A model generated the notes under the pieces. That model was given only the letters and a program-made list of their open reading frames with translations. It did not search any database and was not told the origin of the DNA. Positions 11,501-51,751 of a stretch of 52,392 nt of DNA are shown here, in pieces. Made by a program: the position numbers and the translations under genes. The DNA comes from a virus. Within the stretch, counting starts at the first letter, position 1, and every line of letters begins with the position of its first letter. The DNA lies in IMG/VR virus record IMGVR_UViG_3300045988_103014, positions 141,780-194,171 of that record; one strand, given 5' to 3'.

Positions 11501-12226
11501 AGACACTTCTGTTTCAGAATCTTTTGTAACATTAGCCATTTTAATAACGGCATCAGTACGTTCTTTCACAGCTGCATCATCAAGACCTTGCTGATAGAAA
11601 ATCAAAGCAGCATCAGTATATGCTGTTGTAGTTGTGCTAAGAGCCTTTGCAGACTTATTAGCCTGGTCTGCGAATTTAGCCATCTGTTCAGTGGTCTGCC
11701 CAGTTACGATTCTAATATTATTTAAAGACTCATTCAAATCTTTAGCATATCCATAAGCAGATTGTAATGTACCCATGAAACCATGCAAAATACTTGAAGA
11801 AATTTGCCATCTTGCCGTATTTGCTAAAGTGGTTTTGAATTCATCTAATAATTTATTAGTTCTCTTTAACGGAGCTTCGGCTGTCATAATAGATTGACTT
11901 AATTTTAAGAAAGCTTGCTGGCCCTGTGGACCCAACTTTTCTAATTGCTGACGATAATCTTTAAGGTCTTTGTTAGAACGCTTAAAAGCATCATTAAGCT
12001 TACTTAAATCAATCGACCCGGTCGCAGTGGTTGCCCCTTGTAACGCAACTTTTAAATCTGCTGCGGCACTACGAGCCTGGACCAAATCTTTGGTTAAACT
12101 TAATTCACCGCTCTGCCCACTACCAGTAATCAAGCTGTCTAAGGCCTTCTGCAAATCTTGAATTTGCGCTTTCGCCTTACCAGTGTCAGCAGTAAACGCC
12201 AAACTGACATTTAACTGTTTAGCCAT
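2582..12226 (-). CDS. tail tape measure protein (about 3214 aa)
   Basis: Giant ORF, overwhelmingly coiled-coil composition (A/E/K/L/Q). Hydrophobic/Gly-zipper segments (WPLLAVTLLLVAAMAALAAIIAVVV; GAAIGVGAAAGAGAGATFLGIGAIPGAIIGAIGG) and Gly-rich low-complexity stretches. Sits between chaperone-like genes and the tail-tip gene. The track start at 12247 is GTG; a better start is ATG 12226 with AAAGGAG 10 nt upstream (MAKQLNVSLAF...). Confidence 0.65.
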   Translation of the reverse strand: MAKQLNVSLAFTADTGKAKAQIQDLQKALDSLITGSGQSGELSLTKDLVQARSAAADLKVALQGATTATGSIDLSKLNDAFKRSNKDLKDYRQQLEKLGPQGQQAFLKLSQSIMTAEAPLKRTNKLLDEFKTTLANTARWQISSSILHGFMGTLQSAYGYAKDLNESLNNIRIVTGQTTEQMAKFADQANKSAKALSTTTTAYTDAALIFYQQGLDDAAVKERTDAVIKMANVTKDSETEVSSYMTAIWNNFAGEKANLESYADVITALGAATASSSAEIAGGLEKFAAIGQQIGLSYDYATTALATVVAKTRQSEDVVGTAFKTIFARIQGLNLGETLDDGTDLNKYSKALQSVGISIKDANGDLKDMDVILDEMGAKWGSLAKDQQVALAQTVAGVRQYNQLIALMDSWQTDFQDNLKVAQNSSGALQEQADIYAESWEAARDRVRAAAEGIYSSLLDDKFFISVLNGFEKILTGVDGVIDSLGGLRGILPGVVLLINKLYGDSVAKSIDNMIFNIERQTQKFKEQQAVLRENAYEEAMKIQANSGTELGDAKINSLKTQNELQKVLYGIAKDISAEDVAELQHRLDIVNTYRKQVEEMAKLKDEKSDNLQDSRQSMVNKAQRSGKSSGASRKALAEIQAMETAATRAKRELEQLDREFGSGKNVKAYADGLKKIHKNLTDAGFSRHSSTVKALGSAIGASTKDVNAFNAKVKELAQNGEFADRTFIDIDNVAGELGEKFGWTTQELDGFRQKVAELTSAGMDMDSAIDAASAAIEEFKAKAEAAKNAADSMGTTGQTIVRAFSGISQITMGISSLGSALESLGNKDMKPMEKFKQITQSLLMGIPALIMGVRALASMNKDLALAIEADNAAESKNLLIKGASTLATGLKSIADKGETAGIWAKVAAKLAELAASWPLLAVTLLLVAAMAALAAIIAVVVTIAKAISNAYNADAIAAENAANAAKGLAEAYDEAKAHYESMVQAMEKYKTARDALDQLTKGTKEYREALKQANQAALDLINQTNGLKRGEDYDWVNGELKVSDEAMERIKDQESERVNAAEASSLMADARARQLSAKSNATNLVRSDDMSMGAAIGVGAAAGAGAGATFLGIGAIPGAIIGAIGGALTAGISNGIDNAVEESRINDLTDLYRQMGDEAFDAAKLEELGFDTANKAYIESVKDIVRETISAEEQLSNAARMAAEITMSENENFTQADEETQDKVANVGGKLQEDLYEDAYDKYFKMTKNDDLFGIGSKENKQAMQAYAQQMGLDQLNGYKVTNYKKGGNVEYEYIDEEGKKQTAEVTREQIAMQLAAAEAAEALGQQTDKLIETFNRLETSSNAADQALADFLGGDMEYSNKKEFDAIASELGVTAGNTIDANQADSYLAANIGDGDGILTDDEARAMGYESAQAMKEAFVEEFNSTSGAWQDVHIPESLSESIANGLSLKTAQALENTVNDLNLGPVGEQAGEDFVLGLNSMLENVDADDKQAAMQALMDIDWSSWDALNQADKVLQQFGGDIDLTSKEWKEFAAEMRTAAGATPDYTTLKTDLNEITAILNDLDFGQVIKDEDYQKLVDYNNEWERFFILQADGSRMFIGDAEAMREETRENIREQQKELEARKAAQEGFKKANWGHEDDETGQWVSADWKNKSGSDTGTAQNLLNANGATQDMLETLGYTDEIIQDMITKAESGQEDLVAEGTAQLREMYQRIGEFQGEQLDEMDAQFKEMLASTAANLDELLAMKDEISDEAYDKQLTVLAQQAQSLDELQRIRAAGKDGNTGLDTIEYGDALVKMAEQYDNCAKAAENYSKALLTGDSSQIKAAQSALELEIEIGELSKQYNLDAKEVSSYASRLKEEFKAAGMSEEQAAAAAKKAAVANTRLDRGLLNLNKNLADYKKSLNASNKGTAEWSKTMDALKEDLADILGMDMSTLSDDFAEATLNSEDLKKALDGDVDAIQRLQSAAAEEMIKTIKVNLEGEDLASFEAQWEYLKANMAEAIESPGVDQSNLIASFNEMIAAGNMTKEQIETALAGLHVSANVKTTYIPQTVEVPQTITEEAVVSNGTATVQVPGENGEWKNQEVNLIKKITRTYDAGVTSVDGVVPQYEIEGTEGEGGITTAFAPAPPPRPSKSSTTSGGAGGGGGGDKTPKDPKKESHKKSDEPERYHVVTQQLEELTKALEKVSKAKDRAFGAKKLKLIDDEIAAQEALIRKNEEYADQVESNLKKEKSALAKLGAEFGKDGVITNYDALMKNQKAYDTYNLGVDEYNQLSAEQQEKLDKEWSNRTNADGEYYSGYVDMLNDNLEKSNEEIQKLIQEYEEDQDKLTEIQNEIQERKDAIFDAKLEKIDYVVQIKLDVDERDIKHLEFLLEELEDKDFHAAEAIANIGIQTGKTLDEIDQYKKGIEDILSLSGYDGGLEGFLNGDVSLEELQEGGLTEEGLAKLEEYVDGLADANEKLREMRENAWAQVNDEFEEYLEKMDRGLAKIEHLKSITQSYQNIVDIVGKKFLGVSNDLIDKMNKSVVSQSQDLLKANKAKMEALQASYDQLKNEDTSGWSDQALKERQQLLDKMEDELQSAKEAFMSSWEEALQASADRYAQAVDNIIEEFSDKIAGLYGSLDELQEAYDRASDLDSQYLEDYEQIYQLSKLTRDINNSIDDTDNIAAKEEYRDLLEEINQIEEDGTKLSEYDLEVLQKKFELKQAQIALEEAQNAKSSVGMVRGEDGNYSYVYTANDDDVANAEQNYEDKLHEMQVLNGDYIKQLQEQIIQTQAECAEALAAIKESDFNSYEEWREAVDRTQAYYDQKMDFYYSQLGGALDNNRELYENDWQKYHDLTGYKISDDENYVDKFEETNYAILTGFGSLEEAQNAWTVASGEMLLDLSAAYSEWQTDVETAMELAGTSVDEFADKMEEDTDRNVHDSEKAAESVVDMGQQMEDTFSETLSAIANWEAEWGSAIDDAIAKNKELIESFNEMKREMADAMSAVSNYNPGGGSGDGGSGGGGGNGGGSGSGDGGGSGGGANNADKVEGVAAAIWMDGSSASGWGTGSTRQQRLAAKGVSGAQAYINAHAENGDIYKAWASKRAQLKQFYYGSFDTGGYTGDWGDKSGRLALLHSKEIVLNAKDTENFLQAIDMVREMSDRIDFNAKYASAMMDSMMQPMIGRGGTPEIVQNIEINADFPDATDHSEIELAFNNLINTASQYANRVR

Positions 12227-12261
12227 ATGTACATACTCCTTTCTCACTTTTTTTTATTTGC

Positions 12262-25234: not shown

Positions 25235-27010
25235 TTAGTTCATAAAACACCAGTCTTTGGCATTGAATTTCTTTTTACGTTTCTTTCCGTCTTCTTCTTG
25301 TTTAATGTAATAAAGACCATACTCGAAGGCAGAGAATTTATCTTTTCTAATTCCCTTATTAGCCTGTTTTAAGATGATATTAACACCTTCATTTTCTTCA
25401 CGAAGGTTCATCATCTCCTCTTTCAATATGGAAGTTAAGGTAAATGGTTTAAGATATTCTGCCCTTTCTTCAGGCTTCATATTCTGTCCAACCTTTGTTC
25501 CTAACAATTTTACCTTAGCCACACGCTCATCAATCAAGAATTTAACTTTACCAGAAGATAACTGCGTCTGTGCATTTGCATGTGCTTCCGTGTTAATCGG
25601 AGCATTTGCTTTGATAATGTAAATTGCGTTCTGTTCGCAATTACTTGTTTGATATTTTTTATAGTAACCCTCGTCATCATTATACACACCAAAGTCCGCA
25701 TAAATCTCACTTGTATCAGGGTCAACCTGCTGTTTAACCATGTAATCCATAAGTCCGATACCGAGACCATTACCATCGATTACCAGTCTACGAGCATTAT
25801 ATTTATAATATAATTTCTTCAACTTAATTGCCTGGTCTTCAAAATGTTCATCTGCCATTGTATAAATGTTAATCAATTGCTTTAATGAAACACCTTGTGG
25901 CTGTGGAGTAACCTTAAATACACAAACTACAGTATCACAACCCTTACGACCAACGTCGCAAGAAAGGATATAATAGCTTTGTTTTCCAGCTCTTCCAGAA
26001 GCCTCATACTCAGGCTGCTTTAAAATTCTATTCTTTTCAAAAGTTTCTACACTAAAGAATGCATCTTCTACTGTACCAGACCACTTTGACTCATACTCTC
26101 TATCAAACGCAGTTTCATTGAAAGTACCGTCCATCTTAAGGTCTTTAACAAAGTTCTTATCCAACAGCTTAACTAAAACTGGAATACGATAAGTACCGCC
26201 CATTACAATAGATTTTTCAGGTTTAACAATTTGCCATACTAATAGCTGAATTAACTTATCATAAGGATAAGTATTCTTAAATCCAGCAGTTGTAATATAA
26301 AGCTGAGATTTATTCAACTGTTCTTCTGGGTGAGTAGAACCATCCATACACATACGAGAAATGTTCATGGTAGGAATAATAACTGTTGAAAGAATATCAC
26401 CATCTACACCTACGCACTCCTCGATTACACCTGCGTGACGACGCTTACCACGGGAACTCTCTCGAGCCGCAATGTTATCAAAATATGAACCATTCTTAAA
26501 TACATATTTACAATAATCTTTACCTTCCAATGTTTTACCTCGTCCCCAGTCAATCTCATTTTTAAACGCCGGAATTAGTGAACAAATTTCCTGTACCTTT
26601 TCCTTCATAATACCCGCAGCCTGTTCCTTACCACCTGATGTAACGAACAACTTACACTTAGGATAAAGTACACATCTAATCATCAAAACCATCATAGACA
26701 AGAAAGATTTTGAATACGCACGAGGGAACACCGCATACATATATTGATGTCGCATCGCCGCACGCAAGAAAACTCTTTGATAAAAGTAAAACTTAAAATT
26801 CTGAGGATTGCCGCAAGTCAACAAAAAGTCAACAAACAAATCGGGATACTCCCTCCACAAGGCAATATAATTCCTTGCATCAGGGAGTATCGCACGAATT
26901 CTATCTTCAGAAATATCAATTTTACTATAACGGCTTTCTTGACCAGTAAATCTTGAAATATCAATTCTTCGACTTTTCTTAGAAAGGTCAATTAGTTCTT
27001 CTAAAGCCAT
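25235..27010 (-). CDS. terminase large subunit
   Basis: 591 aa. N-terminal P-loop-like segment (FPRAYSKSF), a Walker-B-like hydrophobic run ending in acidic residues, and a C-terminal RNase-H-like segment (LVIDGNGLGIGLMDYM). Start overlaps the stop of the upstream gene at 27010. Confidence 0.6.
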   Translation of the reverse strand: MALEELIDLSKKSRRIDISRFTGQESRYSKIDISEDRIRAILPDARNYIALWREYPDLFVDFLLTCGNPQNFKFYFYQRVFLRAAMRHQYMYAVFPRAYSKSFLSMMVLMIRCVLYPKCKLFVTSGGKEQAAGIMKEKVQEICSLIPAFKNEIDWGRGKTLEGKDYCKYVFKNGSYFDNIAARESSRGKRRHAGVIEECVGVDGDILSTVIIPTMNISRMCMDGSTHPEEQLNKSQLYITTAGFKNTYPYDKLIQLLVWQIVKPEKSIVMGGTYRIPVLVKLLDKNFVKDLKMDGTFNETAFDREYESKWSGTVEDAFFSVETFEKNRILKQPEYEASGRAGKQSYYILSCDVGRKGCDTVVCVFKVTPQPQGVSLKQLINIYTMADEHFEDQAIKLKKLYYKYNARRLVIDGNGLGIGLMDYMVKQQVDPDTSEIYADFGVYNDDEGYYKKYQTSNCEQNAIYIIKANAPINTEAHANAQTQLSSGKVKFLIDERVAKVKLLGTKVGQNMKPEERAEYLKPFTLTSILKEEMMNLREENEGVNIILKQANKGIRKDKFSAFEYGLYYIKQEEDGKKRKKKFNAKDWCFMN

Positions 27011-29464: not shown

Positions 29465-29701
29465 ATGTCGATTATAATTCAAATTATTATTATGGTTTTT
29501 TGGTTCACTATGGCAGGAATAGTGTTCTTCTCAAATAGTGATGTGTTGGCAGACGCAGAACCTAAAGACCGCAACATTGCTCTACTTATAATGATTATTT
29601 TTGCACCAGTATTAGCATTAAATAATGTTATAGAAGATATATTAGATATAATATTAGGAATAGATAATGACGACGATGATAAGAGAGGAGGCTTCTTCTA
29701 A
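29465..29701 (+). CDS. small membrane protein (2 TM helices, acidic C-terminus)
   Basis: First gene of the rightward operon; hydrophobic IIMVFWFTMAGIVFF and LLIMIIFAPVLAL segments. Its stop overlaps the next ATG (TAATG). Confidence 0.5.
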   Translation: MSIIIQIIIMVFWFTMAGIVFFSNSDVLADAEPKDRNIALLIMIIFAPVLALNNVIEDILDIILGIDNDDDDKRGGFF

Positions 29702-30087
29702 TGTTTAGCAACAGACCTATTGTTGTATCAGCTGTTGGATTTGCTCGAATGGAATATAGTAGTGAATTTGAAAAAATGATGAAATCACAAGGCTATACAA
29801 ACCCATTTGTATTGCAGCGTCACGCAGCAAAGAGACTCTTTAAAGAGATAGATACTAAATCAGAACCGCAAGTACCTAAAAATGTTAAAACACTTCCGGT
29901 TGATGAATGGATATTAAAGCGAGATGAATATATTGCTCGCAAAGTATTTGAAGAATTTGGATGGGAGGAAGTACAATGGGATATCAGAACTAATCATCTT
30001 GAACACCTACTGGATGAATTAAAACCATGTGAAGACCCTATTGGTCAGTGTTCATTGTTCTGTAAATTTTTCCCTTGTGATAAATAA
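29701..30087 (+). CDS. hypothetical protein (128 aa)
   Basis: Translationally coupled to both neighbours. Confidence 0.45.
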   Translation: MFSNRPIVVSAVGFARMEYSSEFEKMMKSQGYTNPFVLQRHAAKRLFKEIDTKSEPQVPKNVKTLPVDEWILKRDEYIARKVFEEFGWEEVQWDIRTNHLEHLLDELKPCEDPIGQCSLFCKFFPCDK

Positions 30088-30888
30088 ATGAGACCAGAGG
30101 ATATTAAAGTACCAATGATATTAAAAGATATTAAAGAATTTACTGCTCAATGGAAAGCTTGTATGAAAGACTATATTGAGCGAATGGAAAAGAAGCCTGG
30201 GCTTGCAATCATTCAAGTCGGCGACGTTGAGGCCTCAAACCGATACGTCCGCAACAAGATTAAAGACTGTGAAGAAGTTGGAATTAAAACTCAATTATTC
30301 AAATTTCCTGAAGACATTTCAGACGTGGCTTTAATCTCACAGTTAAATATGATTGAGGAGAATGATGATTTTACAGGAGTATTTATTCAACTACCCCTGC
30401 CACAACACCTGCAAGGTATTGAAAAACTAATTGACCCCGCAAAAGATGTTGATGGTTTTACTCCAGATTCTGGATATACACCTTGCACACCTCTTGGTAT
30501 AGTCAAGTATTTAGACTATTGTGGTTTTAACTTGGACGGTAAAAATGTTCTTGTTATTGGCCGCAGTGATATCGTAGGTAAGCCAATGGCTCGTCTACTA
30601 TTAGATAGAAATGCAACAGTGACAGTTGCTCATAGCCATACAAAAAATCTTGACGCATTTATTTACACAGCAGATTTAATTGTATGTGCAGTTGGAAAAG
30701 CAAACTTTTTAAGCTGTGAAACAATCTATGTACCAGTTATTGATGTTGGCATCAATTTTGATGAAAATGGTAAATTAGTTGGTGATTGTTATAAAACTGA
30801 AAATCGAGATGTTACGCCGGTTCCCGGCGGTGTTGGACTACTCACCCGCTGTGCATTGCTTCACAATTTAGTAACTGGTATTTCATAA
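30088..30888 (+). CDS. folD: bifunctional 5,10-methylene-tetrahydrofolate dehydrogenase / cyclohydrolase (FolD) homologue
   Basis: 266 aa, collinear with bacterial FolD. Conserved YVRNKxKxCEEVG (catalytic Lys region), LPLPxHL, DVDGF, PCTPxGI, VIGRSxIVGKPMAxLL, ATVTxxHSxTKNL, DVGIN and PVPGGVG segments. Confidence 0.85.
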   Translation: MRPEDIKVPMILKDIKEFTAQWKACMKDYIERMEKKPGLAIIQVGDVEASNRYVRNKIKDCEEVGIKTQLFKFPEDISDVALISQLNMIEENDDFTGVFIQLPLPQHLQGIEKLIDPAKDVDGFTPDSGYTPCTPLGIVKYLDYCGFNLDGKNVLVIGRSDIVGKPMARLLLDRNATVTVAHSHTKNLDAFIYTADLIVCAVGKANFLSCETIYVPVIDVGINFDENGKLVGDCYKTENRDVTPVPGGVGLLTRCALLHNLVTGIS

Positions 30889-30904
30889 TAAGGAGGAATA
30901 GAAA

Positions 30905-31165
30905 ATGTTAAGACCAGAAAACGCAACTAGAAAGATTGACTCTCTTGGAAGAGTAACACTTCCTAAGGGAATGAGAGATAGAATGTTTATTGCCGACACA
31001 GATGAACTTGAGTTCTTTACAATGATGGCTGATGGAAGAGAATATATCTGTATGGCAAAAGTTAGCTCGGTAGACCCTAAGTATCTTGCAGCTCGCTCAG
31101 TACTTGAAGAGATGGGGGTTGAAATTCCGGAGAAGCTGGAAGCCGCATGTAATGGAGGTGAATAA
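30905..31165 (+). CDS. AbrB/MazE/SpoVT-type swapped-hairpin DNA-binding protein
   Basis: N-terminus RKIDSLGRVTLPKGMRDRMFIADTDELEFF matches the AbrB N-domain signature (VDELGRVVIPxELR...). RBS AAGGAGG. Confidence 0.65.
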   Translation: MLRPENATRKIDSLGRVTLPKGMRDRMFIADTDELEFFTMMADGREYICMAKVSSVDPKYLAARSVLEEMGVEIPEKLEAACNGGE

Positions 31166-31494
31166 TGGTACAAATGGATTCATTTACAATTAACCATTCA
31201 TGTGATACATGTATTCACTCAGAGGTTTGTCAGTATAAAACATATTTTAATGATATCGCCAGTCAGATTGAGGGAAAAGTTGATAATGTGTGTATGCCAG
31301 AAATTTTCAAAGTAAATATGGAATGCACAGCATGGGCAATGAAGTATTCAGTCCTTGCAAAAGATTGGGATGCTAAAGGTATCTTAACCACTACTGGACT
31401 ATATACTGGAGATAGTTTATATACTGTAAACCCAGTGACAACACTATGCGACACAAGTAAAGGAGAACCTAAACCACATGAGAAGAATTTATAA
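31165..31494 (+). CDS. hypothetical Cys-rich protein (109 aa)
   Basis: Coupled start (TAATG); multiple Cys/His residues. Confidence 0.4.
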   Translation: MVQMDSFTINHSCDTCIHSEVCQYKTYFNDIASQIEGKVDNVCMPEIFKVNMECTAWAMKYSVLAKDWDAKGILTTTGLYTGDSLYTVNPVTTLCDTSKGEPKPHEKNL

Positions 31495-31903
31495 ATATCA
31501 GTTGATGGAAGCAGAATGCATCACTGCAAGAATTGAAAAATTTTTACATCTTGATTATCAAGATGGTATTCCTACCGTATGGGCTATTATGAATGACGAC
31601 TATCCTGAAGTTACTTATAAAATTGTGGTTCAGGGAACTGGTTGGGATATGCCTAATGACTTAGATGAGTCAACCTATATTGGAACTCTCCAAGCAGGAT
31701 TTTTTGTATGGCATTATTTTGCAGTACCAGACCGCAGAGTCCGTGAATATCAAAAAGTTTATAATGATTATTCAAAAGACATCTATGATAATTTCAAAGA
31801 TAAAGATTTTGAAATTGATATGGAACAGGCAATTCAGTACAATGAAGCATTTCAGAATGTGCTTCGTCAGATTATAGAAAAGTCGCCCGTAGCAATGCAC
31901 TAA
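31478..31903 (+). CDS. hypothetical protein (141 aa)
   Basis: Complete ORF in the operon; no motif assigned. Confidence 0.4.
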   Translation: MRRIYKYQLMEAECITARIEKFLHLDYQDGIPTVWAIMNDDYPEVTYKIVVQGTGWDMPNDLDESTYIGTLQAGFFVWHYFAVPDRRVREYQKVYNDYSKDIYDNFKDKDFEIDMEQAIQYNEAFQNVLRQIIEKSPVAMH

Positions 31904-32196
31904 TGGACATTGCAATTATCTGTTCTCCAGGATTGGAGAATATTGAACTGATTGATGACACCATTATGAAGTGGATGTCAGATAATGATATTTGGTTGGT
32001 AGGTGTAGTTTGTGGTAAACCCACTTCCGCGGGCGCAAAGTGGGCAAGCCGCAGAGGCGCACCAATAAAGTATTCTGGTGTTTGGGAGGCAGATTTTATA
32101 TTTGCCTTCGACACCGGAGTTGACTATTCAGTAAAAAATTTCGTTTCGCAAATGAAGAATAGGGGTAAGCATGGTAGATATATACAAGTTAGTTGA
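31903..32196 (+). CDS. degenerate SLOG/DprA-like Rossmann-fold protein (paralogue of 32828..33172)
   Basis: VGVVCGKPTSAGAKWASRRGAPIKYSGVWE aligns with IVCGGARGADSLGEKWGIANGVPIKYFFPKWE of the downstream paralogue. Confidence 0.4.
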   Translation: MDIAIICSPGLENIELIDDTIMKWMSDNDIWLVGVVCGKPTSAGAKWASRRGAPIKYSGVWEADFIFAFDTGVDYSVKNFVSQMKNRGKHGRYIQVS

Positions 32197-32419
32197 GCCG
32201 CAATATGGCGATATGATTATTGTTGAAGTCGACATGAGTGATGATTCGTGGCTAGATATCGAGACTGTTCAAAAGATACATCAACATATCCAACGACAGT
32301 TCCCTTTTAATTCCGTTATCACAGTCCCTAATTATTTCTCATTAGATTTATATTCAAAAGAAGAGGCTATCAAATATTTGGAAGACCTTCTTCAAAAGAT
32401 TAGAGAGGAGAAGTTATAA
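32171..32419 (+). CDS. hypothetical protein (82 aa)
   Basis: Complete ORF with RBS AGGGGTAAG. Confidence 0.35.
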   Translation: MVDIYKLVEPQYGDMIIVEVDMSDDSWLDIETVQKIHQHIQRQFPFNSVITVPNYFSLDLYSKEEAIKYLEDLLQKIREEKL

Positions 32420-32640
32420 TGCAGGTTACAGAAAAGAAATACAACCAGACTACTACTTTTGGTAAGCTGAAGCCAGGTGACACATTCAAATATGCAAATA
32501 CAGTTTGGATGAAAACCGAGAATGTAAGTAATATGCAGACAAAGATTAACGCAGTTGTTTTGACTACTGGAACTTTTGACCAGTATTTCAAAGACACAGA
32601 TACTGTTGGTGTAATCACAGGTAGCTTTGTGGAGGGTTAA
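32419..32640 (+). CDS. hypothetical protein (73 aa)
   Basis: Coupled start (TAATG). Confidence 0.35.
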   Translation: MQVTEKKYNQTTTFGKLKPGDTFKYANTVWMKTENVSNMQTKINAVVLTTGTFDQYFKDTDTVGVITGSFVEG

Positions 32641-32643
32641 TTT

Positions 32644-32919
32644 ATGGAACCGGTGTCAGTAATACGAAAAACAGAATATCAAGTTGGCGATTTTAATCGA
32701 GAGTCTATTATTCATAACTTTTATTGCGGACATTGTCAGGCAAAAGTTGAAAAGTATCACAAGTATTGCTGGCACTGTGGTTACATGTTGCCAGATAACT
32801 TTGTAAAGAAATTAGGGGGCGATACTTGTGAGATACATAATAGCGGGGAGCCGCAATTTCTCGGATTACTCACTTATGGACGCGACGCTCAAATCATTGA
32901 ACATATCGAGCAACGATGA
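32644..32919 (+). CDS. zinc-ribbon protein (CGHC...CWHCG)
   Basis: Four-Cys motif. The 3' 92 nt overlap the next gene in another frame; the true C-terminus is uncertain. Confidence 0.4.
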   Translation: MEPVSVIRKTEYQVGDFNRESIIHNFYCGHCQAKVEKYHKYCWHCGYMLPDNFVKKLGGDTCEIHNSGEPQFLGLLTYGRDAQIIEHIEQR

Positions 32920-33172
32920 AATAGTTTGTGGAGGAGCCCGTGGTGCGGATTCACTTGGTGAAAAATGGGGTATAGCAAATGGAGTCCCTATAAAATATTT
33001 TTTCCCGAAATGGGAAGAATTTGGCAAAGCCGCAGGACACATCCGAAATGCTGAAATGGCTGAGTACGGCGACTTCTTGGTCGCGTTCTGGGATGGGCAG
33101 AGTCGGGGAACCGCAAACATGATACAAGCAATGAAAAGGAAGAAGAAGCATGGAAAAGTCGTCCGTTATTAA
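32828..33172 (+). CDS. SLOG-superfamily (DprA/LOG-like; DUF2493-like) protein
   Basis: GTG start with GGGGG Shine-Dalgarno. Motif IIAGSRNF...VCGGARGADSLGEKWG typical of the Rossmannoid SLOG/DprA nucleotide-binding fold. Confidence 0.55.
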   Translation: MRYIIAGSRNFSDYSLMDATLKSLNISSNDEIVCGGARGADSLGEKWGIANGVPIKYFFPKWEEFGKAAGHIRNAEMAEYGDFLVAFWDGQSRGTANMIQAMKRKKKHGKVVRY

Positions 33173-33461
33173 ATTTATTGAAGGCATGACAAAAGGACAC
33201 GAAGCCGCAATGGATGAAGTGTTCGCGCATGGTTATTGCTACTGGTTTGCCAAAATCCTCGAACTTCGGTTTGATGGCGAAATGTGGTATTTGCCAGTAG
33301 AAAACCATTGGGTTACCAAAATTGGTGACCACTTTTTTGATGTTAATGGAGAATATGAGGTTGGAGATGGTATCATAGGTACCTGGCACGGAGTCGCGCA
33401 AGAAGACCCTCTATTGGCAGAACGATTGAGAAGAGATTGTATTCTAAAAGAGGAGGTATAG
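33150..33461 (+). CDS. hypothetical protein (103 aa)
   Basis: Complete ORF; overlaps the upstream gene by 23 nt. Confidence 0.35.
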   Translation: MEKSSVIKFIEGMTKGHEAAMDEVFAHGYCYWFAKILELRFDGEMWYLPVENHWVTKIGDHFFDVNGEYEVGDGIIGTWHGVAQEDPLLAERLRRDCILKEEV

Positions 33462-33465
33462 TGAA

Positions 33466-34101
33466 ATGATTTATACCAGTTATTTCGCGCAAATGCGCAA
33501 TTTTCCCGTAAACTTCATACCAATAGCAATCTGCGGCGGCATACCAAAATGGTACAATGGTTTATGGTATAAGAAGGTCGCACCAAAGTGGGCTTTCTTT
33601 TCGCAATGGAAACAAACGCATGATGATGAATATTATGTAGAACATTTTAATAGAGAAGTATTGCAACCGCACGAGCCGCAAAGATTTTTGAACGAGATTC
33701 AGCTTTTGGTTCCAGAAGAGATTAGAGCTGGTATGGCAGAACCAGTTTGGCAAAGTAAGAATGTTCATGTCGTGTTGCTTTGCTATGAAAAGCGAGGTGA
33801 TTTCTGCCACCGACATTTAGTTAGTAAATGGGTCAACGACTGGGCGGGCAAAGACCTTATCCAGGAGTGGATTCCAGAAGCAGTGGAAGAAAGGGTTATC
33901 ACTGAAGATGAGTATCAGAAAGCAAAACAGTCCTTTGCCAATGGCGGCGAAGATGGCACAATTGAGCAAAGCGAACGAGATACGGAAATACCAGAAGACA
34001 GTGCAAGCACAGATTGCGGCGGTCACCAAGTCGATTCTCACAGCGACGAAACTGGGGGAGTTTTCGACGGGAGCATTGGATTTGTTGCCGGAGACAATTA
34101 A
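33466..34101 (+). CDS. DUF488 family protein with acidic C-terminal extension
   Basis: MIYTSYFAQMRNFP...PIAICGGIPKWYNG...VAPK...VVLLCYEKRGDFCHRHLVSKWV matches the DUF488 pattern (IYTSYFA ... LLCYEK...CHRRLVAEWL). The C-terminal ~85 aa are low-complexity and overlapped by a +1-frame ORF. Confidence 0.65.
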   Translation: MIYTSYFAQMRNFPVNFIPIAICGGIPKWYNGLWYKKVAPKWAFFSQWKQTHDDEYYVEHFNREVLQPHEPQRFLNEIQLLVPEEIRAGMAEPVWQSKNVHVVLLCYEKRGDFCHRHLVSKWVNDWAGKDLIQEWIPEAVEERVITEDEYQKAKQSFANGGEDGTIEQSERDTEIPEDSASTDCGGHQVDSHSDETGGVFDGSIGFVAGDN

Positions 34102-36010: not shown

Positions 36011-36069
36011 TCTCCCTTTGAAAAAATCCATTCGCACGCGCGCCGGCGACTGTGGCGCGCGTTATTTTC

Positions 36070-36151
36070 AGCTATTGGCAGTCTGCACAAAAATCTCCGG
36101 CGAATTTTGTGCAAAATTACCTGTTGACATTATCCCGAAATGGTGCTATAA
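36070..36151 (+). promoter_or_regulatory. operator-promoter module 1 (drives Pnk-like kinase gene)
   Basis: TGCACAAA (36084) - 14 nt - TTTTGTGCA (36105), then TTGACA 36124, spacer with ATCCCGAAAT, TATAAT 36146. Confidence 0.55.
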
Positions 36152-36183
36152 TAATTATAGTAAATGAGAGAGAGGTAATGACT

Positions 36184-36615
36184 ATGAGTACAATGTTCGT
36201 AACAATCGGAATGCCTGGATGTGGTAAGAGCACTTGGGCACAGACTAAAAACGCAAGAGTGATTTCATCTGACGCAATTCGCGAAGAGATGTTCGGAGAT
36301 GAAGCAATTCAGGGCGACCCTCGCAAGGTATTCGCAGAGGTTTACAAGAGACTTGCACAGGCTCTCATTGATGATGTGGATGTAATCTTTGACGCAACCA
36401 ACCTCGACTACAAGAGAGCAAAAGCAATCGAAATGTGCTACGAAATGGATTGCGAATGTGTTGCCGTTTACTTTGATGTAGACGCACAGACTTGCATTGA
36501 GAGACAGAACATGCGTTCTCGCAAAGTTCCTGCGTCAGTTATTCGCAGAATGTCTCATCAGTTAGTTGTTCCTTACCTCGAAGAGGGTTGGACACGAATT
36601 GAAAAAGTTTCGTAA
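36184..36615 (+). CDS. polynucleotide 5'-kinase (T4 Pnk kinase-domain homologue, P-loop NTPase)
   Basis: MSTMFVTIGMPGCGKSTWA... (Walker A), DATNLDYKR and VPASVIRRM segments align with the T4 Pnk kinase domain (LTIGCPGSGKSTWA ... ISDTNLNPERR ... VPIDVLRSM). The second ATG, 8 nt after GAGAGG, is the start. Confidence 0.8.
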   Translation: MSTMFVTIGMPGCGKSTWAQTKNARVISSDAIREEMFGDEAIQGDPRKVFAEVYKRLAQALIDDVDVIFDATNLDYKRAKAIEMCYEMDCECVAVYFDVDAQTCIERQNMRSRKVPASVIRRMSHQLVVPYLEEGWTRIEKVS

Positions 36616-37736: not shown

Positions 37737-37815
37737 TCCTTGTCCTTTTCATTTGGCGGCGCGCTTTCGGCCCTGGCGCGCCGAATTTATATTATACCAT
37801 ACCACCCGGGATTTT

Positions 37816-37910
37816 GTCAAGAGAAAATTTGCACAAATTTTTGGCGTTCAATTTCCCGAAATTTGTGCACATTTACCTATTGACAAATGGCTCAAGCTTT
37901 GCTATACTAT
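37816..37910 (+). promoter_or_regulatory. operator-promoter module 2 (drives a ~110-nt non-coding leader)
   Basis: GTCAAGAG ... TGCACAAAT (37830) - 22 nt incl. TTTCCCGAA - ATTTGTGCA (37861) ... CCTATTGACA (-35 37880) - 17 - TATACT. Confidence 0.55.
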
Positions 37911-39517: not shown

Positions 39518-39607
39518 ACTCTGCAAGCATTTTTTTGCCCAAGTTTGGGCGCCGCGCGCACGAACGATGCGCGCGGAATTTTCATTATACCATACCCCAC
39601 AGCTTTT

Positions 39608-39700
39608 GTCAAGAGAAAAGTTGCACAAATTTTCAATCGGTGCTATTCCCGAAATTTGTGCATTTTGCCAGTAGACAAAGCTCTGTTGGAGTGTTATAAT
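39608..39700 (+). promoter_or_regulatory. operator-promoter module 3
   Basis: GTCAAGAG ... TGCACAAAT (39622) - 22 nt incl. TTCCCGAA - ATTTGTGCA (39653), then TAGACA-17-TATAAT. Confidence 0.55.
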
Positions 39701-42624: not shown

Positions 42625-42700
42625 AATTCTCGTCCTTTTTCAGCGCCGCGCCGGCGAACGTCCGGCGCGGTGTTTATTATACCACATCGGCTCAGCATTT

Positions 42701-42795
42701 GTCAAGAGGAAAATTGCACAAATTTTCAAATAATTTTTTTTCCCAATTTGTACAATCTGCCTATTGATTTTTATTAAAAAATTTGGTATTATAAT
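42701..42795 (+). promoter_or_regulatory. operator-promoter module 5 (degenerate right arm)
   Basis: GTCAAGAGG ... TGCACAAAT (42715) ... TTTTTCCCAATTTGTACA ... CCTATTGATT (-35) - 17 - TGgTATTAT. Confidence 0.45.
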
Positions 42796-43900: not shown

Positions 43901-44002
43901 TGCACAAATAAAATTCTCTGTTTTGCACAAAGTTCCAGCCGGAATTTTGTGCAATTTTTTTTATCCAAAAGGCTTGACAAAAGCGGCGACCTGTGCTATA
44001 AT
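43901..44002 (+). promoter_or_regulatory. operator-promoter module 6 (two left half-sites)
   Basis: TGCACAAAT (43901) + TGCACAAAG (43924) - 12 nt - TTTTGTGCA (43945), then TTGACA-16-TATAAT. The transcript immediately enters a GC hairpin. Confidence 0.5.
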
Positions 44003-44062
44003 GGCGCGCCGCTGTCGGCAGCAGCGGCGTGAATTTCCAGTATACCACACTCTCAGCAATTT

Positions 44063-44156
44063 GTCAAGCAAAAACTCCAGGGCAATCTGCACAAATCTTT
44101 TTCCCGAAATTTGTGCAACATTGCCTATTGCATTTTGGGGGTGGGTGTGCTATACT
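44063..44156 (+). promoter_or_regulatory. operator-promoter module 7
   Basis: GTCAAG ... TGCACAAAT (44088) - CTTTTTCCCGAA - ATTTGTGCA (44109) ... CCTATTGCAT (-35) - 17 - TATACT. Confidence 0.5.
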
Positions 44157-44928: not shown

Positions 44929-45026
44929 TCCTCGCCCCCTTGGGGGTAACTGAATAACGGATAAACTAGGGCGGTTTGAGCAAAGGCTTGAACCGCCCGC
45001 TTACGTTCGACGCGGGCGGTGTTTTC

Positions 45027-45109
45027 GTCAATAGGCAGTTTCAACAAATTTTCGGCGTAAAATTTGTGCAATTTTACCTATTGCAATTTTCCCGTAATCG
45101 TGGTATTAT
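45027..45109 (+). promoter_or_regulatory. operator-promoter module 8
   Basis: GTCAATAGGCAG - TTCAACAAAT (degenerate left) - 13 - TTTGTGCA (45063) ... CCTATTGCAA (-35) - TTTTCCCGTAATCGTGG - TATTAT. Confidence 0.5.
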
Positions 45110-45415
45110 AATAATGTCAAGAGGGGATGGTAACTCGGTAACAAGTCCTTAAAAAATTTTCACAAGAGTTGAAAAAACCTCTTGACAACCTCTCTCAAAG
45201 GTGCTATAATGAGAGAGTAGAAAGGAAATAAGAAATGGCACAGATAGTAATTTGTTGTGGTGGACAACCCACAGAAAAAGATAAGCGAGAGATTTACAAC
45301 TTGCTTGAGTTCAAAAAAAGATTAAAAAAAATAAAAAAGGTATTGACAAACCTACAAAGTAGTGTTATAATAAATACATAAAGAACAGAAAACAAATCAC
45401 AGAAAGAGAGAGGTA

Positions 45416-46608: not shown

Positions 46609-46664
46609 CACCCTCGGTTTTTTAATTTGAGCCGCGCGCCAGTGAACGTGGCGCGTGGTGTTTT

Positions 46665-46747
46665 GTCAAGAGTAATACTGCACAAATTTTTCGTGCAAAA
46701 TTTGTGCAAAATGACCACTTGACTTTTTTCCCGTAATCGGCTATAAT
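46665..46747 (+). promoter_or_regulatory. operator-promoter module 9
   Basis: GTCAAGAG ... TGCACAAAT (46679) - 13 - TTTGTGCA (46701), then TTGACT - TTTTTCCCGTAATCGGC - TATAAT. Confidence 0.55.
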
Positions 46748-46778
46748 GATTATAGTAAATGAAAGAGAGGTGGACACA

Positions 46779-49647: not shown

Positions 49648-49746
49648 TGCACAAAAAACCGGTGTCAAGGGGCAAAACCGACAAGGTTTGCCCCATTTTT
49701 TTGTGCATTTTTACTATTGACAAAGGGGGTCGGTCTGTGGTATAAT
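49648..49746 (+). promoter_or_regulatory. operator-promoter module 13 (terminator hairpin between half-sites)
   Basis: GTGCAATTTGCACAAAA (49642-49657; palindrome) ... terminator ... TTTGTGCA (49700), then TTGACA-18-TATAAT. The transcript enters hairpin GGGCCGGCCGC...GCGGCCGG. Confidence 0.5.
49669..49702 (+). terminator. terminator after paralogue B2, embedded between operator half-sites
   Basis: GGGGCAAA-ACCGACAAGG-TTTGCCCC + T7. Confidence 0.6.
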
Positions 49747-49782
49747 GGGCCGGCCGCTGACGCAAGCTGCGGCCGGAATTTC

Positions 49783-49867
49783 GTCAATAGGCAACATTCA
49801 CAAATTTTTCTCTCAAAATTTGTGCAATTTGACGGGTTGACTTTTTTCCCAAAATGGTGTATTATAG
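49783..49867 (+). promoter_or_regulatory. operator-promoter module 14
   Basis: GTCAATAGG ... TTCACAAAT - 15 - AATTTGTGCA (49820), then TTGACT - TTTTTCCCAAAATGGTGT - TATTAT. Confidence 0.5.
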
Positions 49868-49887
49868 TTACATAAGAAAGAGAGGTA

Positions 49888-50530: not shown

Positions 50531-50758
50531 ATGAACGATACAATGAAAATAATAATGATGAACATGCTCGGCGGTGCGGACAGTTTGGTTCGTGAGTATG
50601 GAGATGAAGAGGTTCTTGAGCCTTGGTTAATGTGTGGCGTTCCCGATGGTGCGACAGTAGAGGACTTGGCAGAAATTGCTGATGACCTCGACGGGTTCAT
50701 CGACATCATGGAGTGCTTTGTGCGTCGGCTCAAGCAGATTAAGGAAAGCGAGGGGTAA
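50531..50758 (+). CDS. small acidic protein (75 aa)
   Basis: D/E-rich; its stop codon lies in the loop of the T17 terminator. Confidence 0.45.
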   Translation: MNDTMKIIMMNMLGGADSLVREYGDEEVLEPWLMCGVPDGATVEDLAEIADDLDGFIDIMECFVRRLKQIKESEG

Positions 50759-50785
50759 AACCCTCGTATTTTTTTTTTTTTTTTT
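50748..50785 (+). terminator. terminator with 17-T homopolymer
   Basis: CGAGGG-GTAAAA-CCCTCG followed by TA + T17. Confidence 0.65.
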
Positions 50786-50796
50786 GCAAAAAACAC

Positions 50797-50825
50797 TTGA
50801 CAAGTGCGGCCAGCTATGGTATAAT
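50797..50825 (+). promoter_or_regulatory. strong promoter reading into GC-rich island
   Basis: TTGACA-17-TGgTATAAT immediately after the T17 terminator. No RBS or ORF follows for ~270 nt. Confidence 0.5.
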
Positions 50826-50831
50826 AAAAGT

Positions 50832-51110
50832 GAGCTAGAACGGGCCGCGGACGAAGGAGCAGGCCCGAATTTCCGCCCGCACACCCCATATGCAAATTTC
50901 TCCGTACTTCTAGCATATGCCGCATATGCGCACATTTTTCCCGAAAACCTAGGTCGGCCCGCCGCCGGGCGCATGCACTCGCCGGTCCGGAATTGCCGAA
51001 AGCCTTAACTAATTTCTGGGCCCGCGGGACCGGGCCGCCGCATATGCGAGAATTCCTAGAATTCTCACGAGCATGGCTCTAGCCGAGCCACGCTCCAGTT
51101 AATGCCATTG
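50832..51110 (+). other. GC-rich (~60% GC) palindrome-dense island, transcribed from strong promoter; candidate structured RNA, ori or packaging site
   Basis: Sharp composition break against the AT-rich surroundings. Four copies of GCATATGC-type palindromes, GAGAATTCCTAGAATTCTC, CCCGCGGG and GGGCCCGCGGGACCGGGCC. No RBS-bearing ORF. Confidence 0.3.
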
Positions 51111-51158
51111 TCAATATTTAGGATGCACAATGCTTCTGACGTGTTGTTGTCAGCAAAC

Positions 51159-51250
51159 TTGACAATGATATAAAATTTTGCTATAATATAATTGGGGGGA
51201 GCAAAATTAAAGAACGGTAATTTGATTTTCTAAAAAAAATATGGTACAAT
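51159..51250 (+). promoter_or_regulatory. two tandem promoters for 51284 gene
   Basis: TTGACA-18-TATAAT (51159-51188) and TTGATT-17-TGgTACAAT (51222-51250). A degenerate GTCAATA/TGCACAAT operator lies upstream. Confidence 0.45.
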
Positions 51251-51283
51251 ATATATAGATAAAATGAAAAGGAGATATGTCAA

Positions 51284-51751
51284 ATGGTTAACCAGAACGA
51301 TATTTTGAAGGCGCTCCAGGAGGGCCAGGACGCTGGCACAATCGCCCAGCAGATGACTGATGCACTGAACGCCGCAATCGCACAGAAGAAGAAGATTGAT
51401 GCTGATAAGGCGAAGACTGAGCAGGAGAAGAAGATGCAGGCTGCCCGCAAGGAGCAGATTATGCAGGACATCCTGAACTCTATCTTTGACTTCATTGACG
51501 AGTTTTATCCTGACTTTGCAGTTCCAGCAGAGCTTGAGGAGCAGATGACTGCTGCCGCAGTAATCGAGTCTATGGACAAGGCCGCTGCCGAGGTAAAGGA
51601 ACTCGTGGCGCAGATGAAGGAGTTCGAGGCTATGCTGAAGAACTCAGATAAGCCAAAAGTAAAGGCAAATGAAACAGCAAACACTGTTCGTAAGCCTGCG
51701 GCTCCAGATAAGATTATTCTGGACTTCTTGCGCTCACAGGGCTTGGCATAA
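51284..51751 (+). CDS. hypothetical helical protein with GC-richer, host-like codon usage (155 aa)
   Basis: Classical AAAGGAG RBS rather than the cassette leader. Two tandem promoters upstream and two terminators downstream. Third-position G/C usage is clearly higher than in the rest of the window. Confidence 0.5.
   Translation: MVNQNDILKALQEGQDAGTIAQQMTDALNAAIAQKKKIDADKAKTEQEKKMQAARKEQIMQDILNSIFDFIDEFYPDFAVPAELEEQMTAAAVIESMDKAAAEVKELVAQMKEFEAMLKNSDKPKVKANETANTVRKPAAPDKIILDFLRSQGLA

Follow-up and report, generated by a model that had tools for sequence, protein, structure and literature searches.

A conserved non-coding island related to a repeated promoter–terminator cassette precedes an early gene in large gut siphophages

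Between the last two genes of the plus-strand early block in a stretch of viral DNA from IMG/VR (record IMGVR_UViG_3300045988_103014, positions 141,780–194,171; the whole stretch of 52,392 nucleotides (nt) is called the window, and all coordinates are its own) lies an island, at 50832–51110, that is a real, conserved and phage-specific non-coding element. Specifically, it is an exapted single-locus derivative of a composite promoter/terminator cassette, a known kind of element, whose function here we infer. The island is homologous to the phage's other cassettes, occurs at a single locus, is linked to one gene, is conserved above the level of that gene, and opens with a hairpin (H1) that covaries. 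The account we lean towards, tentatively and with a little less than even confidence, is that it forms a cis-acting control region or 5' leader of a conserved early gene for a 155-amino-acid (aa) protein, and that it arose from two tandem promoter-less cassette derivatives, units A and B. The features on which this account turns are as follows.

50797–50825, plus strand: promoter P1, a consensus sigma-A-type promoter (TTGACA-17-TGGTATAAT, with a TG-extended TATAAT), one of 34 perfect sites in the window
50837–50958, plus strand: unit A, the first 122 nt of the island, a single-locus, promoter-less, specialised member of a repeated cassette family
50841–50867, plus strand: hairpin H1 (CGGGCC/GGCCCG, loop with GGACG; −14.6 kcal/mol), its stem 6–9 base pairs (bp) long across variants
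50868–50874, plus strand: AATTTCC box (AWTTTCC across variants), directly 3' of H1
50887–50913, plus strand: invariant core box CATATGCAAATTT-CTCCG-TACTTCTAG, 27 nt and fixed in length, with the pattern CATATGCAAAWTT-N5-TACTTCTAG
from 50913, plus strand: two further CATATG boxes, GCATATGC-C-GCATATGC, forming a local 7-bp hairpin, the second CATATG being usual in variants
to 50948, plus strand: CACA-TTTTTCCCGAAAAC, following the CATATG boxes, a motif that is the promoter spacer in canonical cassettes
51159–51187, plus strand: promoter P2, a consensus site from the promoter scan
51222–51250, plus strand: promoter P3 (TTGATT-17-TGGTACAAT), which with P2 makes up an AT-rich tandem-promoter region at 51159–51250
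51284–51751, plus strand: gene of the 155-aa early protein, acidic (isoelectric point 4.8) and all-helical, with the ribosome-binding site (RBS) AAAGGAG at 51268–51274

The ancestry of the island is read from the cassettes that the phage carries elsewhere. The window holds 12 copies of the TTTCCCGAAA cassette motif (TTTTCCCGAAA), with 1.7 expected, usually as the spacer of a promoter (TTGACtt-TTTTCCCGAAA-TGgTATAAT) or within an operator-like dyad just upstream of such a promoter. Canonical cassettes (36030–36150, 37750–37900, 39545–39700, 43974–44150, 44989–45110, 46628–46760 and 49717–49870) are ~120 nt long and run in a set order from a GC hairpin (−18 to −22 kcal/mol) through AATTTC/GTTTTC, GTCAATAGGCA, the dyad TGCACAAATTT..AAATTTGTGCA and a promoter to an RBS and a gene, the promoters being exemplified by TTGACT-17-TATTAT at 49837–49865 and a perfect site at 49717–49746. 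The dyad suggests a common early-gene repressor. Behind the hairpins, whose energies range from −14.6 to −21.8 kcal/mol, come AAUUUC, GUUUUC or AAUUUUC, with U-tracts that are short and were not called by the terminator scan, and the canonical hairpin often stands directly after another plus-strand consensus promoter, in three cases after a convergent minus-strand one. Three perfect minus-strand promoters lie within the plus-strand block (37791–37820, 39584–39612 and 42676–42705), each aimed at a GC hairpin and, beyond it, in antisense at the 3' end of the upstream gene; at 43974–44070, plus- and minus-strand promoters converge on one hairpin.

A covariance model (R1) built solely from 26 unit-A variants scores unit A itself at 105.6 bits. 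Because it also picks out the canonical cassettes, every one on the plus strand (49746–49866 at 36 bits, E ~1e-7; 44005 at 22.6; 44989 at 20.8; 34363 at 17.2; weaker matches at 37757, 39552 and 36036), we regard unit A as a specialised single-locus member of the phage's cassette family. Unit A and the canonical cassettes share an order of elements, namely hairpin, AATTTC, (T)GCA(C)AAATTT and TTTCCCGAAA, and across unit-A variants the 3' motif takes the form (T/A)n-TCCCGAAA (50935–50948). They differ in that unit A has lost the promoter hexamers, containing neither a −35 nor a −10, and carries CATATG boxes in place of the dyad.

Comparison with relatives provides the evidence for conservation and for linkage to the gene. 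Both flanking proteins occur on ~20 contigs from several projects, one of which, of 193.9 kb, runs through the site. Homologues of the 155-aa protein share 44–69% identity, and in every fetched neighbourhood the homologue is preceded by a gap of 500–630 nt that has no called gene (save in relative L014, with one called minus-strand open reading frame, ORF) and holds a recognisable copy of the island. The pattern of the core box marks 6 loci in the genome collection and another 19 in IMG/VR, where the contigs are 28–402 kb long and many measure 160–197 kb. The genome-collection loci are contigs of metagenome-assembled genomes (MAGs) labelled Bacteroidales, Acutalibacteraceae, Clostridia and Mollicutes, all with the same phage context, and are probably binned phage DNA. 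In total, unit A is represented by 31 distinct variants, and downstream of it, wherever the sequence reaches, stands a gene whose product starts like the 155-aa protein. In the loci of 25 relatives, R1 gives one strong match each (66–124 bits; two in L023) and several of 20–36 bits.

When the window is compared with seven relatives, unit A proves 70–83% identical in nucleotides and the adjacent gene 60–66% (47–54% in amino acids), while the upstream gene is not orthologous (23–32% in forced alignments). The columns of the core box, which is unique in the window, are invariant across the 26 variants save for five free central nucleotides. H1, in the same 26 sequences, shows double changes at five of its nine pairs (e.g., CGGCCCGAG/CTCGGGCCG, CGGGCCGGG/CCCGGCCCG and CGGCGCGAG/CTCGCGCCG), with a covariation score of 0.172 against 0.055 when shuffled (0/500 as high) and at most 0.084 in slid-partner controls; its loops keep a GACG/GGAACG motif common to the hairpins of canonical cassettes. 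H1 looks like a terminator or an attenuator, or else like a hairpin that a protein recognises. The number of units varies, from three in L019, L022 and L023 to unit A only in the L035 type, whose variants are the shortest and have unit A abutting the −35 of the next promoter. In L014 (2429–3463), deletions have removed the end of the 75-aa gene together with the terminator and the P1 −10, the first half of unit B, the P2 −10 and an internal part of the 155-aa gene, of which 119 aa are left; unit A is kept with one substitution.

The remainder of the island and its upstream border comprise the following.

50748–50785, plus strand: intrinsic terminator of the upstream 75-aa gene (hairpin GCGAGGGG-TAAAAC-CCCTCGT at 50748–50767, T17 at 50769–50785; −13.6 kcal/mol)
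50955–51109, plus strand: unit B, a looser second cassette-like unit, with GC hairpins at 50955–50971 and 51018–51036 and the fourth CATATG at 51041
51048–51066 and 51069–51095, plus strand: further unit B hairpins, the first being GAGAATTC-CTA-GAATTCTC
51110–51153, plus strand: cassette remnant GTCAATATTTAGGATGCACAAT (compare canonical GTCAATAGGCA..TGCACAAATTT) and a conserved box CTGACGTGTTGTTGTCAG upstream of P2

The original prediction, made from the letters of the window, holds in its description of this region, with one amendment. The island is indeed GC-rich (58.8% against 38.8% for the window), and the T17-tailed terminator and the consensus extended −10 promoter are both where they had been placed. 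The motifs that had been listed are likewise present: GAGAATTC-CTA-GAATTCTC in the hairpin at 51048–51066, CCCGCGGG at 51021–51028, GGGCCCGCGGGACCGGGCC at 51018–51036, CGGCCCGCCGCCGGGCG at 50955–50971, TTTTTCCCGAAAAC at 50935–50948 and, at 51110–51131, the remnant GTCAATA..TGCACAAT that closes unit B, with P2 next. The reported density of palindromes was borne out, with 14 palindromes of 6 bp in 279 nt against a window mean of 3.0 (standard deviation 2.1) and 4.5 expected from the composition of the island, a count reached at only 0.2% of window positions and the densest cluster in the window. A fourfold repeat needed amending: GCATATGC itself occurs three times (50913, 50922 and 51040), and it is CATATGC/CATATG that occurs four times (50887, 50914, 50923 and 51041), against 0.06 expected for CATATG in 279 nt from the rest of the window (Poisson P ~5e-7). 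The palindromes had also been called unusual for their likeness to restriction sites; they are enriched, but the enriched words, CATATG and GAATTC, are not those that the genome avoids. In most relatives the enrichment in 6-bp palindromes and two to four CATATG boxes recur. Each phage also repeats a GC octamer of its own within the island (CCGACCGG/CCGGTCGG in L036 and L031, CCGATCGG in L040; GCCCGC in the window), so that the repeated word differs between phages and the repetition itself is kept.

We lean towards a control region or 5' leader because unit A is linked to the gene, descends from the cassettes and lies upstream of the gene's promoters, and because the terminator scan predicts no terminator between P1 and the gene. 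In a canonical cassette, the hairpin and its short U-tract would terminate or attenuate transcription from upstream, and H1 would in the same manner attenuate read-through into the island. The CATATG, core and TCCCGAAA boxes are putative sites for a phage (or host) regulator, which may bind them either as DNA or in the leader RNA. Where P1 is present, the island would also be transcribed as a ~450-nt leader running through P2 and P3 into the gene, and such a leader would give an apparently very strongly expressed early gene a third, separately regulated class of transcript. The tandem layout of P2 and P3 is kept in relatives.

Several observations weigh against this account. Among the neighbouring proteins, the only one with a recognisable domain for binding DNA or RNA is a ribbon-helix-helix protein, which in relatives stands three genes off, and unit A lies 200–330 bp upstream of P2 and P3 in the window, which is far for a simple operator. 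The strict invariance of a fixed-length 27-nt box exceeds what most operators need. Of 29 distinct variants, 16 have a consensus promoter directly before unit A and the other 13 have none, which weakens the leader-RNA half of the account, and several distant relatives have minus-strand promoters pointing into the island, as a plain leader model does not predict. Finally, an origin or a packaging signal would also appear as a single-copy conserved non-coding element.

With these points in view, it is possible, if rather less probable than a control region, that in unit A the large gut siphophages have a new functional nucleic-acid element specific to their clade (a hairpin and an invariant 27-nt box, one locus per genome), exapted from a promoter–terminator cassette and acting as a stable regulatory or decoy RNA, or as an origin or an entry or packaging signal. 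The more specific forms of this idea can be weighed separately.

The first of them, which we think doubtful, is that P1 drives a stable non-coding RNA that stands by itself, such as a sponge for a protein, an antisense regulator or an anti-defence decoy, in which the conserved single-stranded boxes would be functional and H1 a 5' stabiliser. In its favour are P1 itself, a perfect extended −10 promoter that no ORF follows, the high GC of the island within an AT-rich genome, and the covariation of H1, which shows a few G-U pairs on the plus strand. The transcript start in relatives is a Shine-Dalgarno-like GGTGGGG tract followed by a hairpin, and both STAB-SD (stabilising Shine-Dalgarno) sequences and 5' stem-loops are known 5' stabilisers of messenger RNA (mRNA) in Gram-positives. 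The convergent promoters in distant relatives would, moreover, yield overlapping sense and antisense RNAs. Against this stand the lack of a 3' terminator, the absence of the promoter in the 13 variants just mentioned, and the folding results. The minimum free energy of the whole island gives z-scores of −1.7 and −1.3, which is not better than shuffles. Among all column pairs of unit A, including the variable 5-mer and the H1 loop, there is no second covarying helix, and RNAalifold on eight full islands returned three covarying pairs, all in the hairpin at 51048–51066, where compensatory changes occur (L015 has ATGATTTC-CCA-GAAATCAT). A fold of multiple helices is unsupported, and in unit A only H1 covaries; the covarying multi-helix fold that would mark a riboswitch-like leader was not found. 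A long-range helix of 14 bp that the window's unit B can form was set aside as well: relatives do not conserve it, and L014 lacks its 5' arm.

Nor did comparison with known RNAs help this explanation. Rfam 15 (all 4227 models), a check that the original prediction had proposed, gave no match at the gathering threshold in the window, the island or the loci of six relatives; in the island and those six loci the weak matches reached 15–35 bits against gathering thresholds of 45–440, none of them on unit A. No transfer RNA or transfer-messenger RNA was found by the scan for them, and complementary targets of TACTTCTAGC in the window are at chance level only, with none enriched. A likeness of AATTTCT..TAG to Cas12a repeats, which had raised the idea of an RNA anti-CRISPR, was dropped, as the required stem is absent. 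Of the structured RNA that had been proposed at the outset, what stands is a consensus promoter upstream, no terminator before the next gene and one covarying hairpin per unit; what does not is a family in Rfam, a second helix, a fold better than shuffled sequence and a promoter in every variant.

A transcription-activated origin, in which a promoter-driven GC-rich transcript would serve as R-loop or primer beside an AT-rich unwinding region and the CATATG and core boxes would be initiator or methylation sites, is less likely again. In its favour are a single, highly conserved locus per genome, a repeated palindromic hexamer, a flank (51100–51283) of 20–30% GC, and promoters that aim at the island from one or both sides. 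It would share with transcribed origins (the ori transcript of lactococcal phage c2, the R-loop origins oriF and oriG of T4, the primary origin of T7, and RNA II of ColE1) a strong promoter that reads into a non-coding structured transcript by an AT-rich stretch at a single locus. Unlike these, the transcript strand is C-rich (GC skew of the plus strand −0.10 to −0.14), which is unfavourable for an R-loop from P1, and in L019, L022 and L023 no promoter points into the island. The iteron-like origin first suggested for the CATATGC repeats is not supported: the island holds no tandem iteron array, its CATATG boxes are irregularly spaced (27, 9 and 118 nt), no DnaA box lies within 700 nt of it, and no replication or initiator gene was recognised in the window or the next 10 kb. 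The AT-rich flank does exist, but it is wholly explained by two promoters and an RBS.

Equally improbable in our estimate is that units A and B are functionless, decayed cassettes left after the loss of small genes, their apparent conservation coming from a role as recombination junctions. The homology of the island to cassettes fits this, as do its position at a module boundary, where the upstream gene is variable and the downstream gene conserved, the abrupt shift in GATC content at unit A in L046, L052 and L054, and the deletions around unit A in L014. However, the unit-A boxes are absent from all other cassettes of the genome, and therefore recombination among cassettes cannot maintain them. 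The 27-nt box is invariant in 26 variants whose flanks have diverged to 47–54% aa identity, and the compensatory changes in H1 imply selection.

We consider it very unlikely that the island is a packaging, terminus or staged-entry signal in the DNA, whether a pac or cos site, a terminal-repeat boundary or a T5-like injection-stop region. It is palindrome-dense, ORF-free and single-copy and closes the early gene block, and six short contigs have one of their ends in the T-tract that immediately precedes P1. Three tandem strong promoters ahead of a small acidic first gene recall the left end of T7, where host RNA polymerase promoters A1, A2 and A3 likewise stand in tandem before gene 0.3 and a few hundred non-coding bases precede a small acidic early protein; unlike those of T7, the spacers here are conserved, GC-rich and hairpin-rich, and the 155-aa protein has no detectable similarity to Ocr. 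The terminase gene (25235–27010) is 24 kb away, longer contigs, including the one of 193.9 kb, run straight through the site, and the contig breaks are explained by the length-variable T10–20 homopolymer itself. In assemblies of the otherwise identical region (L002–L013), the T-tract at 50769–50785 measures 10–20 T; the breaks and the variation could reflect a homopolymer assembly break or real heterogeneity in length.

On sequence grounds, a protein-coding role of the island is excluded. As had been claimed, no ORF led by an RBS lies in it, the sole ORFs being mechanical ones that cross the terminator and the promoter or run antisense, none of them led by a Shine-Dalgarno sequence; longer ORFs through unit A were rejected, as their frames differ between variants and stops occur in the window. 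The core box could be read as a translated 7-codon leader peptide (ATG CAA AWT xxx xxx TAC TTC TAG, MQ[IN][SF]xYF, compare short stalling leaders), whose start, stop and length are invariant in the 26 variants and which shows synonymous TTT/TTC and TCA/TCG changes within the L035 group. We reject this mini-ORF as highly improbable: it has no upstream Shine-Dalgarno sequence (ACACCCC stands there, where every real gene here has a strong one), CAA, TAC, TTC and the stop show no wobble changes in any variant, codon 3 can be Ile or Asn, and codon 5 varies freely.

Foreign DNA taken from a host, or an artefact of assembly or cloning, to which GC content and restriction-site-like palindromes unlike the surroundings might point, can be dismissed, given that the 525-nt intergenic region is identical, barring T-tract length, in 11 independent contigs from several projects, that the island holds the same position in 31 variants, is homologous to the phage's own cassettes and lacks the words avoided by the genome, and that it has no match in phage isolates, its "bacterial" matches being only small MAG contigs with the same phage locus. 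The horizontally acquired fragment that had been suggested is thereby rejected, and the supposedly foreign composition of the downstream gene proved to be a trait of its whole family: raised GC (0.58–0.65 at first codon positions) occurs throughout it, in genomes of similar GC. Neither the island nor the unit-A consensus has a BLASTN match in 50,697 phage records, an exact 30-mer had no match in IMG/VR, and the flanking proteins as single queries in IMG/VR returned nothing.

Among described systems, the closest counterparts of the cassettes are the promoter-early stem-loops (PeSLs), mobile regulatory cassettes of T4-type phages that concentrate in hyperplastic regions upstream of ORFans and for which a role in recombination junctions and in mini-circle formation has been proposed (Arbiol et al., 2010, PMC2839356; Comeau et al., 2014, PMC4122927). 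As in PeSLs, small intergenic cassettes combine a near-perfect sigma-70-type promoter with a GC-rich stem-loop (a terminator or attenuator in PeSLs, and predicted to be one here), recur in many copies on one strand of a variable early region before small ORFan genes, and sit at boundaries where the gene content of relatives differs. Unlike PeSLs, which belong to T4-type myoviruses, these cassettes are found in a large siphovirus of probable Clostridia, bear no sequence relationship to PeSLs, and add an operator-like dyad and a conserved motif in the promoter spacer; the strong promoter within the motif is a property of the canonical cassettes and not of unit A. The cassettes here are an analogue of PeSLs, not members of that family, and a promoter-less, single-locus derivative with invariant boxes of its own is not described in the PeSL papers.

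A second likeness is to the nut (boxA/boxB) sites of lambda and the put sites of HK022, in which a hairpin with a conserved loop and a short linear box also stand just downstream of early promoters. The resemblance is one of functional analogy, in a setting where every small gene has its own terminator. Unlike nut and put, there is no N-like protein identified and no sequence or structural match, and with no more than two terminators beyond the downstream gene, processive antitermination would serve no obvious purpose here.

The cassettes indicate that PeSL-like composite elements are not confined to T4-type phages of Gram-negatives but also occur in the early region of large uncultured siphophages of gut Firmicutes, and that exaptation can turn such a cassette into a single-copy element whose conservation exceeds that of every neighbouring gene. 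Together, unit A and the 155-aa protein offer a handle on early gene control or host takeover in a clade with no cultured member, and the covariance model and the pattern CATATGCAAAWTT-N5-TACTTCTAG let annotators mark the locus.

Neither Pfam nor PHROG has a family for the 155-aa protein, and tblastn finds no match to it in the same 50,697 phage records. AlphaFold models it as long helices only (mean predicted local distance difference test score, pLDDT, 69.6; predicted template-modelling score, pTM, 0.36), for which Foldseek against the PDB returned nothing below E=1. Between P2 and P3 (51188–51221) the first bases to be transcribed hold a conserved run of five to six G (ATAATTGGGGGGAGC), Shine-Dalgarno-like and without an ORF, that is also present in L019, L022, L023, L026 and L028 and is followed in some relatives by a small terminator-like hairpin. 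The G tract may stabilise the 5' end in the manner of a STAB-SD sequence, or belong to a tiny transcript.

The window as a whole derives from a large siphovirus, with a portal, a terminase-like protein, a phage sigma factor and a tape measure protein of 3221 aa (2582–12247, minus strand). The nearest portal matches are a record from the human gut (54%), phAss-1 (36%) and Enterococcus siphophages of 134–142 kb (~29%), with Brevibacillus phage Sundance also among the nearest; the phAss-1 group are long-tailed phages of probable Clostridia (PMC10607447). The tape measure implies an extremely long tail, comparable to the 3149–3209 aa of the phAss-1 group, and, unlike in phAss-1, in-frame TAG recoding is not evident in the window. 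The late genes lie on the minus strand and reach as far as 29.3 kb, and from 29.4 to 51.75 kb runs a plus-strand block of small genes, mostly of unknown function and with some enzymes of nucleotide metabolism. This early block holds 31 of the window's 34 perfect TTGACA-N(14–19)-TATAAT sites, against 0.14 expected. Its enzymes (29701–34100 and 36052–36612) are FolD, a nucleoside 2-deoxyribosyltransferase, an NT5C-type nucleotidase, an AAA_33 kinase, a DUF488-N3a protein and a YAcAr/SLOG protein, a set that hints at remodelling of the nucleotide pool or at DNA base modification.

The window contains no GATC, against ~185 expected, and few of several other words (ATTAAT 0 against 43, ACTAGT 1 against 17, TAGCTA 1 against 17 and ATCGAT 2 against 17). 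This absence of GATC and rarity of other palindromes is a strong restriction-avoidance signature. GATC is likewise absent from L001 (0 in 20 kb), L019, L022, L023, L026, L028, L031 and L032. Relatives of the L035 type have no GATC in ~10 kb of the early region on one side of unit A, and GATC is clustered (10–13 sites per ~1.3 kb) in the stretch that spans unit A, the 155-aa homologue and the gene after it, in L046 (10763–12076), L052 (931–2644), L054 (30–1253) and L043 (3208–4385). It looks as if a module of unit A and the gene has been exchanged between phages that differ in GATC avoidance.

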